This document shows, one piece after another, positions 18,752-21,999 of a stretch of DNA of 26,214 nucleotides. The notes beneath the pieces were generated by a model. It saw nothing but the letters and a program-made list of their open reading frames with translations, was not told where the DNA came from and did no database searches. The DNA comes from an uncultured Sulfuricella sp. (GTDB lineage: Bacteria; Pseudomonadota; Gammaproteobacteria; Burkholderiales; Sulfuricellaceae): assembly GCA_964351305.1 (NCBI GenBank), contig CAYGNO010000012.1:1-26214 (forward strand), in the 5' to 3' direction. A program made the position numbers and the translations under genes. The stretch's first letter is position 1; the number at the start of each line of letters is the position of its first letter.

Positions 18752-19633
18752 CTAATCACCCTCGTGCTTGGCCTGGTCGATATCCTTGTAATGCAAAGCG
18801 GAAATCTGCTCTGACACGATGCCGATGAGGAAAGTGAAGATGGCCGAGATGAACAGCAGGGCGCTCATGTTGGTGAAACGCCCCGCAGTCAGATAGGTGT
18901 AGAGGTAGTAGCACAGGCCCGTCCAGAAGAAGGCCGCGCTGATGGGGATGAATAATTTCTGCGGGGAGTAGAGCGTGCCGACCTTGATGATGATCAGCAT
19001 GAATCTCACGCCATCCCGAATCGGGCGAATATGGCTTTTGCCGGTCGAGCGTCGCGGCGTGTGGATAGGCACGTAGCCGACGTCGAATCCGGCACGGAAA
19101 AAACTCATGGTGATGGTGGTCGGGTAGGAAAAGCCGTTCGGTAGCAGGTACAGGAACTTGCGGAACTTGTCTGCCTTGACTACCCGAAAACCCGAGGTCA
19201 GGTCCTCTACGGGTTGCTGCACCATCCAGGAGGCAAAGCGGCTGAAGATATCGTTGGCCACGGCCCGATGTCTGCTGGCCTGGGAACCGCTGGTTCGTGC
19301 ACCGACCACCATGTCGTAGCCTTCAGCGAATCTTTCCAGTAGGAGGGGGATGTCTTCCGGTTTGTGCTGGCCATCGGCATCCATGAAAATCAGGACGTCG
19401 CCGTTGGCGGCGCGCGCACCGGATTTTACTGCTGCTCCATTGCCCTTGGGGTAAGGGTGGCGGATCACTCGCACCGGGAATTTCTCGCACACCGCCAAGG
19501 TGTCGTCGTCCGAGCCGTCATCAACCACGATGATTTCCGCGCCAGGTATCCGCGCTATGATTTCCGGCAACAGGGTGCGCAGGCTGGCTGCTTCGTTTCT
19601 TGCCGGAAGGACAATGGATATTGTATTTGCCAT
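18752..19633 (-). CDS. Polyprenyl-phosphate glycosyltransferase (GT2; GtrB/ArnC/Ppm1-like)
   Basis: SIVLPARNEA, VVDDGSDDDT and FMDADGQH (DxD) are present, plus two C-terminal TM helices (FIPISAAFFWTGLCYYLYTYL and ALLFISAIFTFLIGIV). This architecture is typical of lipid-carrier sugar-loading enzymes. Confidence 0.8.
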   Translation of the reverse strand: MANTISIVLPARNEAASLRTLLPEIIARIPGAEIIVVDDGSDDDTLAVCEKFPVRVIRHPYPKGNGAAVKSGARAANGDVLIFMDADGQHKPEDIPLLLERFAEGYDMVVGARTSGSQASRHRAVANDIFSRFASWMVQQPVEDLTSGFRVVKADKFRKFLYLLPNGFSYPTTITMSFFRAGFDVGYVPIHTPRRSTGKSHIRPIRDGVRFMLIIIKVGTLYSPQKLFIPISAAFFWTGLCYYLYTYLTAGRFTNMSALLFISAIFTFLIGIVSEQISALHYKDIDQAKHEGD

Positions 19634-19663
19634 GATTGCTTTCGAATAATGCCGAGCAAGACC

Positions 19664-21406
19664 TTATTTTGATGGCGCTGTTTTGGGTCGAAGTTCCGGC
19701 GGCAAATTGCCAAACTCGGCGATGATCTGGCTTCTGTGGCTGCTTGTGAGTAGTGGGTTCGACATCGTGGCACGGTAAAGGCGATCAACAATTTCCGCAT
19801 TGACTACAATATAACCGCTAGCAATATCTCTAACCAGACCTATGAGGGTGTTCTTGTTTGGAGGGCCGAATGGAACCGTAGCAAGTCGCTGTTCCAGCTC
19901 GCCGAGTAATGTCTCATCCACAGGTAATTTCTTTTCTGCATTTATCGCAAAGATGTTGACGAGCCCGGCGATACTTGACGGTGCATTATCTGCAGCTTGC
20001 TGGAAATGGAATATTGCCTTGTTATAAAGATCAATTGCATCTTCTTGTGAAGTGGGTGGCAGGTACTTGTACAGAGTAGCTAAATCAGTATGTGCCCGCA
20101 TGGAGCGCGGATGCCGTTCCACTTCCATTGTGCGCATCAGGAGTGTGTCTCCCCATTGCTGGGCACGGGTGGCGGTCAATCCGGCAAACAGGATGACCAG
20201 CAGCAAAAATGCCGCCCGGCGTACTCGTACACTGGCCAAATGCAGCCGGGGGTTTAATGCGTAATAGGCTAACGGCAGCAGGATGCCCAACATGGGCAAA
20301 TAGTTGCGGTGCTCGAAGGCCAGTTCCAGCGGGATGATCGTTGACTCCATGGCGTGTCCGACGAAAAAAAACGCTATTCCGAAGGTAATCAGGGGCTGCT
20401 TGTTGCGCAACACGAAGGCGATTGCCGTGAGCAAGAGCAACCCCACAATAGCGGGCAAGGTTGTCCATGGCGAAAACAGATTTCGAGAAATCAGGATGTC
20501 GTCGTGCTGCAAGCCCATCTCGCTCATATTGGGCAATACGATCATGTGCAGATAAAACCACAACACGCGTGCTTCGGTCATCAAGCGCTCGGTCAGCGAA
20601 AAGTCACGCCACACATAGCCGCCCAGAATCAGGCTGGGATTATTTAAGACATAAAAAAGTCCAACCAGTATCGGTACTGCTACCGTTAGTCCGAGAATAG
20701 CCGCCAGCATGCGACGATTGTCCTGGTCAGGCGCGTTCCATCGCAGCAGAATCGCCTCGGTGACAAAAATGAGCAAGGGCAGCAGGACACCATTTTCCTT
20801 GCACAGCGCAGCAAGTGGTGTGGCGATGAACAGGGCCGCAGCTATTGCAAAAAATCCAGATCTGTTTCCACTCAGTAGTTCTTTTCTGCCATATAAATAC
20901 AGTGTTAACCCGGCTAGTGTGAATAATGCCGAAAGGCTAGTCATCCGCTGTACCATGTACAGCACGCTTGTCAGGTTAAATGGATGCAATAGCCATACTG
21001 CGGCGACTGCAAGTCCTATCCAGGATGCGGTATTGTCGTCTGCCGCTCCGCGTATGCGTAGATGCAGGTTGAGCAATAACTTCACCATGAAGAATACCTG
21101 CACCCCGTTGATCAGATGGATCGCCAGATTGACCGCCTTGAAGTAATAAGGGTTTAGTCCAAAGAAATATTGATTAATGGCGAAGCTGGTCATACTGATG
21201 GGGCGACTCAATGGGCTGACGCCCCCCGAAGTCGCAGCCTGCCAAAGAGAGGAAAAATCCAGGCTGTTAATTTTCAGGAATTGATTGATGCGGATATTGA
21301 CGCCGTCGTCGGAAATAAAATGCCCCGTTAGCCCTGGCAGATAGCAGGCTACGGTAAGGGCAATGATGCAAAACAACAGGGCGGTTTTAATGGCGGGATT
21401 ATGCAT
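19664..21406 (-). CDS. GT-C fold membrane glycosyltransferase, TMTC/PMT_2-like, with a C-terminal TPR-like soluble domain
   Basis: 580 aa with about 10 or more TM helices. An acidic first-loop motif GHFISDDGVN is present, as are HPFNLTSVLYMVQR and AFEHRNYLPMLGI (compare the conserved ER/HR-x-YLP of TMTC/PMT-like proteins). The helical C-terminal ~150 aa is TPR-like. Confidence 0.7.
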   Translation of the reverse strand: MHNPAIKTALLFCIIALTVACYLPGLTGHFISDDGVNIRINQFLKINSLDFSSLWQAATSGGVSPLSRPISMTSFAINQYFFGLNPYYFKAVNLAIHLINGVQVFFMVKLLLNLHLRIRGAADDNTASWIGLAVAAVWLLHPFNLTSVLYMVQRMTSLSALFTLAGLTLYLYGRKELLSGNRSGFFAIAAALFIATPLAALCKENGVLLPLLIFVTEAILLRWNAPDQDNRRMLAAILGLTVAVPILVGLFYVLNNPSLILGGYVWRDFSLTERLMTEARVLWFYLHMIVLPNMSEMGLQHDDILISRNLFSPWTTLPAIVGLLLLTAIAFVLRNKQPLITFGIAFFFVGHAMESTIIPLELAFEHRNYLPMLGILLPLAYYALNPRLHLASVRVRRAAFLLLVILFAGLTATRAQQWGDTLLMRTMEVERHPRSMRAHTDLATLYKYLPPTSQEDAIDLYNKAIFHFQQAADNAPSSIAGLVNIFAINAEKKLPVDETLLGELEQRLATVPFGPPNKNTLIGLVRDIASGYIVVNAEIVDRLYRATMSNPLLTSSHRSQIIAEFGNLPPELRPKTAPSK

Positions 21407-21412
21407 AGTTGT

Positions 21413-21441
21413 AAAAAAGGGGGCGAAAGCCCCCTTTTTTT
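21413..21441 (-). terminator. Rho-independent (bidirectional) terminator downstream of the pilin gene
   Basis: AAAAAA-GGGGGC-GAAA-GCCCCC-TTTTTTT. It begins 22 nt after the pilin stop and ends 7 nt before the ATG of the GT-C gene. Confidence 0.85.
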
Positions 21442-21463
21442 ATTAACTTAGGTCAAGTAAGAA

Positions 21464-21922
21464 TTAGGATTTGGGCAGGTACTTTGCAGCTCCAACGTTA
21501 CCGGTACCAGTAACGGCCCACGTTGTTCCTGCGGTAGTGCATCCTGGGGTCCATACAATGGTACCAGTGGGTATTCCATTGTTACCGCTTGAATTAGCCG
21601 TAATTGCACCAGTGGCCGCAACGATGGTGGCGCTTCCTAGGTATTTGGAAGTTGGAGTGTTTATAGTGAGAGAGCCACCGGTACCACCGGTTATAGTGTC
21701 GAGGCTAGCGCCAGCCATAGCGGGTGTCAGAGAGCCACCATTTTCACTACAGTAAACGCCAACCGCAAGCCGCGCCGAGCTGGTCAAGCTGGTCAATTCA
21801 GTAATTTTGGATTTGATGGTGTAGTCCTGGTAGGCCGGAATCGCTACCGCCGCCAGAATGCCGATAATCGCGACCACGATCATCAGTTCGATCAGGGTAA
21901 AGCCTTGTTGTACTTTTTTCAT
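21464..21922 (-). CDS. pilA: Type IVa major pilin (PilA/PilE-like prepilin)
   Basis: [34 protein letters not shown] has a 7-aa leader with Gly-1, Phe+1 and Glu+5. AAGGAG is upstream of the ATG. The globular part is Ser/Thr/Gly-rich, has two Cys (residues 58 and 128) and ends in ...YLPKS. The track's longer ORF (to 22249) is a spurious extension through the promoter and repeat copy B. Confidence 0.9.
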
Positions 21923-21983
21923 GTCGAGCTCCTTTGTTGAATGAGTAATCTGCCAACACTTGGAAGTGTCTGGTTGATCTATA

Positions 21984-21999
21984 CGCAATCTATGTGCCA
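21984..21999 (-). promoter_or_regulatory. Sigma54 (RpoN) -24/-12 promoter of the pilin gene
   Basis: The minus strand reads TGGCAC-ATAGA-TTGCG, which matches the TGGCAC-N5-TTGC consensus. It lies about 60 nt upstream of the pilin ATG. Confidence 0.75.

Follow-up and report, generated by a model that had tools for sequence, protein, structure and literature searches.

In Pseudomonas aeruginosa, the major pilin gene pilA has a strong promoter and is followed by a terminator, behind which either tfpO or tfpW stands as an accessory gene (PMC11841053). TfpW of the group IV strains of Pseudomonas (para)aeruginosa (PA7, Pa5196) is a 646-aa GT-C glycosyltransferase with an essential DDx motif in its first loop and C-terminal periplasmic tetratricopeptide repeats (TPR), encoded directly 3' of pilA; it O-glycosylates Ser and Thr residues of the pilin from a polyprenyl-phosphate sugar, is best modelled on ArnT and the TPR domain of OGT, and has homologs that occur with pilA in several species (bioRxiv 10.1101/2020.04.19.049825). 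The sugars that TfpO and TfpW attach to the pilus shield Pseudomonas against phages specific for pili and against recognition by antibodies (PMC11841053, PMC12369383). Here, we describe a comparable arrangement in a stretch of 26,214 nucleotides from an uncultured Sulfuricella sp. (contig CAYGNO010000012.1), referred to below as the window, where a type IVa pilin gene is followed by the genes of a 580-aa GT-C protein and of a family 2 glycosyltransferase (GT2). This trio probably represents a two-enzyme, TfpW-like O-glycosylation cassette dedicated to the adjacent pilin.

The pilin region was read on the minus strand, from 21999 to 18752 in coordinates of the 26-kb window, and comprises the following features:

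21985..21999, minus strand: sigma-54 (-24/-12) promoter, TGGCAC-N5-TTGC, identified by motif match and expected to drive the pilin gene
21464..21922, minus strand: major pilin gene of type IVa, coding for a prepilin of 152 aa (Pfam N_methyl and Pilin)
21413..21440, minus strand: intrinsic terminator, a GGGGGC-TTTC-GCCCCC hairpin plus T-run (folding energy)
19664..21406, minus strand: predicted GT-C glycosyltransferase, 580 aa (AlphaFold2, Foldseek and alignment)
nt 21406-20147, minus strand: transmembrane (TM) domain of the GT-C protein, residues 1-420 (AlphaFold2 model)
nt 21310-21305, minus strand: GT-C residues D33-D34, in the predicted first periplasmic loop (80-sequence alignment)
nt 20146-19709, minus strand: TPR-like, presumably periplasmic tail of the GT-C protein, residues 421-566 (AlphaFold2 model)
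18752..19633, minus strand: GT2, putative polyprenyl-phosphate glycosyltransferase of the GtrB/DPMS/ArnC type, 293 aa (Pfam, PDB matches)

The original prediction had singled out five elements here, namely a sigma-54 promoter, a Ser/Thr/Gly-rich pilin, a terminator, the 580-aa GT-C protein and the GT2, and the minus strand holds each of them at, or close to, the place first given to it.

We compared the trio with 85 related loci (numbered with the prefix L), five retrieved by exact look-up of homologs and 80 taken from a scan of species-representative genomes as the best 80 of at least 592 relatives. These loci belong to Beta- and Gammaproteobacteria, with Gallionella, Sulfuricella, Propionivibrio, Undibacterium, Dechloromonas denitrificans and Novimethylophilus, and further carriers in Exilibacterium, Methylococcales, Acidiferrobacterales and Sedimenticola. 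The pilin census was restricted to the 74 loci in which 700 bp or more precede the GT-C gene. Of these, 68 have a pilin open reading frame (ORF) that lies on the same strand and ends no more than 400 bp upstream of this gene, over a range of 34-85% GT-C identity. Of 71 loci, 54 have a GT2 ortholog (>200 bits) whose start lies no more than 300 bp 3' of the GT-C gene, and 63 have one anywhere in the locus. The pilin next to the GT-C gene is normally the sole pilin-like ORF of each ~17-kb locus, and L041, an apparent exception in the census, does carry a pilin, shortened by the ORF rule.

The context 5' of the trio is variable, with dnaK-dnaJ in Sulfuricella and a GAF-MshEN-T2SSE ATPase plus a GAF-HD-GYP protein elsewhere, and the trio itself stays intact. 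Two loci have the surroundings of classical pilus genes: the gene order is pilS-pilR-pilin-GT-C-GT2 in L042, and pilB-pilC is divergent from pilin-GT-C-GT2 in L033 (Exilibacterium). The gammaproteobacterial trio occupies a genuine pilA locus, and the link of this GT-C family to pilins is not a matter of chance. The association with the adjacent pilin proposed at the outset is borne out by these counts, and the neighbourhood survey, which might have revealed a linkage to lipopolysaccharide (LPS) genes rather than to pilins, came out in favour of the pilin.

Concerning the 580-aa protein, we assign it as a GT-C glycosyltransferase with a TPR tail because of its predicted fold, its Foldseek matches and its invariant residues. 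An AlphaFold2 model built on 58 homologs is confident (pLDDT 88.4, pTM 0.87) and places ~12 TM helices ahead of eight paired helices, which occupy residues 421-566. In Foldseek, the eleven top PDB matches to this model are all GT-C enzymes (STT3/OST, ArnT, PglB, Pmt4), ten of them at probability 0.99-1.0 and one at 0.90, with weak E-values of 1.6e-3 to 4e-2 and TM-scores of 0.29-0.46; TPR proteins (OGT, SPY, IFIT5) come next. The motifs GHFISDDGVN and FEHRNYLP occupy residues 28-37 and 364-371, respectively, and D33-D34-G35, which forms a DDx motif, directly follows TM1. In an alignment of 80 sequences, extending to 34% identity, the invariant positions include D33-D34, R68-P69, K203-E204, Y285, P292, D302, R367 and Y369, and about 30 residues of the TM domain besides the loop-1 DD are invariant.

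Sequence profiles tell less about this protein. It has no match in Pfam or NCBIfam even at E<=10, and none of the 58 homologs matches the GT-C families of Pfam (PMT, PMT_2, TMTC_DUF1736, TMEM260_N) at E<=0.01. The only domain matched among these homologs is TPR_19, in 10 longer members, and the sole match in PDB sequence searches is the designed consensus TPR protein CTPR-rv4 (7obi, E 0.0027). The 'PMT/TMTC-like' character first attributed to the protein therefore stands at the level of fold and architecture, the structure search having returned STT3, ArnT, PglB and Pmt4, and falls at the level of families, as no Pfam or NCBIfam GT-C model recognizes either the protein or its 58 homologs. A profile search with the GT-C protein retrieved 9,472 clusters (50% identity) at E<=1e-30 and 61,804 at E<=1e-3, the latter figure probably including proteins that match through TPR repeats alone. 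No relatives were found in viral contigs, and a tblastn search of plasmids gave no matches. Two 580-aa ORFs that follow the GT-C gene in L049 were considered as homologs and rejected (hhalign probability 0.3).

Two close homologs carry the name 'pilus assembly protein PilF' in NCBI, and some others are named 'protein O-mannosyl-transferase' in IMG and NCBI. The first name would suit a non-catalytic TPR membrane protein that aids pilus assembly, and the presence of ArnT among the structural neighbours and of ArnC among the relatives of the GT2 would suit an ArnT-like modifier of lipid A or the LPS core. We regard both readings as very improbable. The PilF name reflects the TPR tail only, and the invariance of the loop-1 DD and of the other TM-domain residues over 80 sequences is the reason why an enzyme is more fitting than a non-catalytic protein. 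Moreover, ArnT has no TPR domain, arnA/B/D-type genes are not present in the window, and a lipid-carrier GT2 is the constant partner.

The gene of this GT2 starts 30 nt after the GT-C gene, and its product matches Pfam Glycos_transf_2 (1.3e-32). Its best relatives in the PDB include the Pyrococcus Dol-P-Man (dolichyl phosphate mannose) synthase (5mlz, 3.4e-18) and ArnC (9hwj, 1.4e-11), and residues 5-279 align with Synechocystis GtrB (5ekp), the C-terminal membrane region included. A catalytic domain of the GT-A type is followed by a C-terminal membrane anchor, as in the solved members of the GtrB, DPMS and ArnC families. We therefore predict that it is a polyprenyl-phosphate glycosyltransferase, which we propose as the maker of the lipid-linked donor. 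Its best NCBIfam matches are AglJ, a Dol-P-hexose transferase, PgfS, PpgS and ArnC, and since all these scores lie far below the curated cutoffs, no specific ortholog can be assigned and the sequence does not reveal the sugar. Among the proposals initially made about the enzymes, the pairing of a GT-C enzyme with a polyprenyl-phosphate sugar synthase agrees with the GT-C fold and with the DPMS, ArnC and GtrB relatives of the GT2, and the 'mannosyl-type' label finds no support.

In loci where no GT2 is adjacent, methyltransferases, LPG_synthase_TM proteins, a sulfotransferase and a Wzx-like fragment were seen downstream of the GT-C gene. An LPG_synthase_TM (MprF flippase-like) protein is encoded 3' of the GT-C gene in L034 (8970-9896), where it is accompanied by three methyltransferases, and in L028 (10525-11637); the GT2 is not adjacent in either locus. 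From its domain, this protein is a possible candidate for a flippase in these two loci.

The pilin gene runs from ATG 21922, preceded by the ribosome-binding site AAGGAG, to a stop at 21464, and codes for 152 aa with Pfam matches to N_methyl (1.7e-10) and Pilin (4e-6). A reading as a 261-aa ORF was rejected as a mere upstream extension of the 152-aa ORF. Behind the prepilin leader MKKVQQG, the mature pilin has 145 aa, ends in KYLPKS, and contains 13 Ser, 24 Thr and 19 Gly (Ser+Thr 25.5%) as well as two Cys (Cys51, Cys121). The sigma-54 motif upstream, 63 nt 5' of the pilin ATG, is the sole match to TGGCAC-N5-TTGC in the window (0.13 expected by chance). An exact sigma-54 motif is also present 63-123 nt 5' of the pilin in 27 of the 68 related loci, and in L042 the sigma-54 activator system PilS-PilR is encoded directly 5' of the pilin. 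A REP-like (repetitive extragenic palindromic) element was suspected upstream of the promoter, and no inverted repeat was found there.

The terminator was found by folding and was not picked up by a simple consensus scan. Its hairpin has a dG of -20.6 kcal/mol (z -4.56; 0 of 200 shuffles fold as well) and occupies most of the 57-nt spacer between the pilin and GT-C genes. About 62-66 of the 68 related loci have a comparable hairpin and T-run behind the pilin stop. As the promoter scan detected no sigma-70-like promoter in 18600-22400 and the 57-nt spacer leaves no room for one, the enzyme genes must owe most of their transcription to transcripts that start at the pilin promoter and read through the terminator. 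The GT-C start codon (21406) lies only 6 nt past the T-run of the terminator and has no recognizable Shine-Dalgarno sequence, a context that fits a deliberately low expression relative to the pilin.

These data suggest the following scenario. The sigma-54 promoter would ensure strong transcription of the major pilin gene, with most transcripts ending at the hairpin and a fraction continuing into the GT-C and GT2 genes. At the cytoplasmic face, the GT2 would move one sugar from a nucleotide sugar onto undecaprenyl phosphate, and a flippase would transfer the lipid-linked sugar to the periplasm. There, the Asp-Asp site in loop 1 of the GT-C enzyme would pass the sugar to Ser/Thr residues of the membrane-anchored pilin before its assembly, while the TPR tail may serve to recognize the protein substrate.

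Several observations weigh against such a pilin-dedicated cassette. The GT-C domain fits no curated family, and belongs to a large family without a Pfam or NCBIfam model. The window holds no flippase gene: three or more TM segments occur only in the ORFs of a MacB-like permease, of Wzm and of the GT-C protein. The original statement that a GtrA-type flippase gene is missing from the window is thus correct, and none is conserved in the related cassettes. The terminal Ser of the pilin varies among close relatives (S/T/P/A/G/I/V/K), so that a TfpO-like acceptor in the form of a conserved last Ser was ruled out. As the globular domain has no strongly conserved Ser or Thr either, no acceptor site can be named in the pilin.

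This lack of a conserved acceptor site across pilins would be expected of a general periplasmic protein O-glycosyltransferase (PglL-, TMTC- or GtrB/PgtC2-like) acting on many Ser/Thr-rich envelope proteins, with the pilin as one of them. There are precedents, as the TPR-bearing GT-C enzymes TMTC and TMEM260 each modify whole classes of proteins (PMC10214176, PMC11292533), and the streptococcal GtrB/GT-C pair modifies several proteins (PMC12041528). We nevertheless find a general enzyme quite unlikely, as the gene is found tightly and almost universally behind the terminator of the pilin, which speaks for a dedicated substrate like that of TfpO and TfpW, and the tandem paralogs described below also stay at the pilin locus.

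The remaining points against a pilin-dedicated cassette come from the neighbouring genes. Glycan-synthesis genes lie beside the trio in most loci, the gammaproteobacterial ones included. In the window, the GT-C and GT2 genes open a co-directional run, partly with 4-bp overlaps of start and stop codons downstream of the GT2, that converges on a complete ABC-transporter O-polysaccharide cluster (window 3055-13058):

18623-17514, minus strand: GT4 (Pfam)
17517-16657, minus strand: GalE-like epimerase (Pfam)
16591-15431, minus strand: AAA_14/DUF4143 ATPase gene (Pfam)
15434-14397, minus strand: second GT2 (Pfam)
13058-12003, minus strand: Gmd, part of the glycosyltransferase run (in which a GT1-family enzyme is placed after the second GT2) and within the span of the O-polysaccharide cluster
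10615-11973: further GT1-family enzyme, O-polysaccharide cluster
7964-10486: double GT4, 840 aa, O-polysaccharide cluster
6046-7668: methyltransferase plus kinase-like domain, WbdD chain-terminator-like, O-polysaccharide cluster
4782-6089: Wzt with Wzt_C glycan-binding domain, O-polysaccharide cluster
3985-4785: Wzm, O-polysaccharide cluster
3055-3720: APS kinase, O-polysaccharide cluster

Such an arrangement recalls the Gtr-like decoration of O-polysaccharides in the periplasm, where the GT2 would make an undecaprenyl-phosphate (Und-P) sugar and the GT-C enzyme would attach this sugar as a branch of the polymer exported by the neighbouring ABC transporter, the pilin being a mere conserved neighbour. 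O-antigen side-chain systems made of a GtrB-type enzyme and a GT-C enzyme are well established (PMC11127046). Here the two genes start the glycosyltransferase/epimerase/Gmd run beside those of Wzm, Wzt, the methyltransferase-kinase and the large GT4, and Wzm/Wzt or Wzx and glycosyltransferase genes also flank the trio elsewhere. However, the polysaccharide genes vary by lineage whereas pilin-GT-C-GT2 is constant: of 47 loci, 16 carry homologs of the GT4 and of the second GT2, whereas 24, mostly from Gammaproteobacteria, lack them. Moreover, the extra-membrane domain is made of TPR, a protein-binding module, and not of a carbohydrate-binding domain as in GT136 ORF12. The cluster also lacks a GtrA gene, the GT-C gene has no promoter of its own and would be transcribed from that of the pilin, and viral contigs hold no member of the family, which sets it apart from the gtr clusters carried by phages. 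We therefore consider decoration of the O-polysaccharide, an alternative already raised in the original prediction, unlikely, although it is the main rival of the pilin reading.

If the cassette is dedicated to the pilin, as we favour, the genes that follow it may still have a part in glycosylation. The order GT2-GT4-epimerase-GT2 after the GT-C gene is found in Sulfuricella, Propionivibrio, Undibacterium and others, and is kept down to ~40% GT-C identity in Betaproteobacteria. This conserved order may feed or extend the pilin glycan, and the best model match of the GT2 is the archaeal AglJ, which led us to consider another scheme. In Betaproteobacteria, these enzymes would build a short oligosaccharide on undecaprenyl monophosphate and the TPR GT-C protein would be an O-oligosaccharyltransferase, the counterpart of the archaeal Dol-P Agl system; in Gammaproteobacteria, the glycan would be built stepwise by tandem GT-C enzymes, and the whole would form an evolutionarily separate route with a far wider distribution than TfpW. 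We find this rather improbable. The genes at 14397..18623 look like a lineage-specific extension of the cassette, and their involvement is uncertain. The AAA_14/DUF4143 gene, which shows a 4-bp overlap, is enclosed by the genes of the epimerase and the second GT2, and a 386-aa ORF occupies the same slot in a Propionivibrio metagenome-assembled genome (L014); being absent from Sulfuricella relatives and others, this gene looks inserted.

Tandem GT-C paralogs, two or three after a single pilin and usually with one GT2 behind, are present in 14 loci (L021, L025, L035, L048, L051, L054, L057, L068, L071, L075, L076, L083, L084 and L088), and nearly all keep the F-DD motif. They could carry out the stepwise building of a glycan in the periplasm. 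Two more distant members (L089 and L090) again display the order pilin-GT-C-GT2. Just 5' of the pilin, these two loci (L089 3394-8201, L090 1-6454) code for a TMEM260_N-type GT-C protein of 660-670 aa and a further GT2, the latter fused in L089 to a GtrA_DPMS_TM domain. Judging from these domains, the pilin of L089 and L090 appears to be flanked by two different lipid-sugar-dependent GT-C systems.

The genes upstream of the trio and at the far end of the window are as follows:

22370-22917, minus strand: MazE-like/PemK (MazF) toxin-antitoxin pair, flanked by the HD-GYP gene and the promoter of the pilin
23962-25590, minus strand: GAF-HD-GYP protein, directly after the pilus ATPase
25615-26163, minus strand: type IV pilus ATPase, C-terminus only in the window (GAF and MshEN N-terminal domains in full-length relatives)
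75-803: MacB-type ABC transporter ATPase
800-1183: PD-(D/E)XK nuclease-family gene (PDDEXK_3)
1224-2474: MacB-type ABC transporter permease

A pilus ATPase of 786-802 aa with GAF and MshEN domains is also encoded together with a GAF-HD-GYP protein in L001, L006 and L008. In Gallionella-type genomes, the two are kept as a pair just 5' of the pilin, which suggests a control of this pilus by cyclic-di-GMP. The MazE-like/PemK pair lies near the pilin promoter, and the parent contig (L001 7744-9037) adds a RelB/ParE pair; these toxin-antitoxin pairs are absent from relatives such as L006, and would therefore be insertions beside the pilin gene. At the other end, the nuclease-family gene is wedged between those of the MacB-type ATPase and permease.

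Experimental knowledge of the TfpW type comes from a single species and concerns a single sugar. If our reading is correct, TfpW-like pilin glycosylation with a one-step lipid-sugar synthase would be common in environmental Beta- and Gammaproteobacteria, with carriers that include iron oxidizers, denitrifiers, methylotrophs and methanotrophs; the scan of species-representative genomes detected at least 590 matching stretches. It would also define a GT-C family so far uncurated, lacking a Pfam or NCBIfam model, and the pilin, GT-C and GT2 genes would make up a compact module suited to reconstitution and glycoengineering. Cultured carriers exist, among them Dechloromonas denitrificans ATCC BAA-841, Undibacterium hunanense CY18W, Novimethylophilus kurashikiensis La2-4, Exilibacterium tricleocarpae R142 and Ferrigenium kumadai.

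We found no description in the literature of a cassette made of a pilin, a TPR GT-C protein and a GtrB-type enzyme, but only TfpW and unrelated systems. TfpO/PilO and PglL also glycosylate pilins in the periplasm, and tfpO sits in the same slot after pilA. These enzymes belong to the Wzy_C type and transfer oligosaccharides linked to undecaprenyl diphosphate (Und-PP) en bloc. No Wzy_C domain was matched by Pfam in the proteins of the window, and the GT-C protein is for this reason not of the TfpO/PglL type.

In streptococci, Ser/Thr-rich extracytoplasmic regions of proteins are O-glycosylated by GtrB and PgtC2, which add glucose, and also in a PgfS-dependent manner (PMC12041528). The logic is the same, with a GT2 that loads a sugar on polyprenyl phosphate and a GT-C enzyme that transfers it to Ser/Thr, and PgfS is among the best NCBIfam matches of our GT2. 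Actinobacterial Ppm1 and Pmt follow the same two-enzyme logic with mannose. These Gram-positive systems differ from ours in that their GT-C enzymes have no TPR tail, act on several substrates and are not linked to a pilin.

The eukaryotic protein O-mannosyltransferases TMTC1-4 and TMEM260 combine a GT-C membrane domain with luminal TPR and use a Dol-P-sugar donor and Ser/Thr acceptors (PMC10214176, PMC11292533). In contrast, the GT-C protein of the window fails the TMTC_DUF1736, PMT_2 and TMEM260_N models, mannose is not implied, and separate TMEM260_N-type genes adjoin some of the pilin loci. The three-component GtrABC systems, which include the GT136 pentofuranose systems, share with the window a GtrB-type Und-P-sugar synthase and a periplasmic GT-C enzyme beside O-polysaccharide genes (PMC11127046), and differ from it in that our locus has no GtrA or MATE flippase gene, carries a TPR tail, is linked to a pilin and is not phage-borne. 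The cassette is therefore no complete GtrABC system.

The likeness to TfpW includes a gene directly after pilA and behind a terminator, a multi-TM GT-C architecture with a loop-1 DDx and a TPR tail predicted to be periplasmic, the proposed polyprenyl-monophosphate donor, and ArnT- and OGT-like templates. The donor supply differs: TfpW uses decaprenyl/undecaprenyl-P-D-Araf and so depends on a D-arabinofuranose (D-Araf) pathway (DPPR synthase, DprE1, DprE2, with a GtrA-like protein elsewhere), whereas here there is one adjacent GtrB/DPMS-type GT2, and none of the three D-Araf genes was seen in the window or downstream of the GT-C gene in L028, L034 and L041. The two proteins, compared through the published description of TfpW only, also differ in length, with 646 aa for TfpW and 580 aa here, most family members having ~650 aa. 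Of the proline-rich motif YX6PFX7P in loop 4 of TfpW, only Y285-x6-P292 is present, where the end of TM8 passes into loop 4, with N instead of F next and no second Pro at +9. Homolog searches with the GT-C protein of the window, its Exilibacterium ortholog and a divergent tandem paralog returned, among the matches listed, no named TfpW such as that of PA7 (AAM52060.1), and none of the best 80 of at least 592 relatives comes from a species with published TfpW homologs. Because this motif is partial, no D-Araf genes were seen and the comparison relies on a description of TfpW, we do not file the protein as a member of the TfpW family. The original prediction had held that the system would differ from the TfpW type, a view that is not supported, as TfpW shares both the place behind pilA and the combination of a GT-C enzyme with TPR. 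On this comparison, we would place the cassette not as a route apart from TfpW, but as a widespread variant of TfpW-like character whose donor is supplied differently, in one step.

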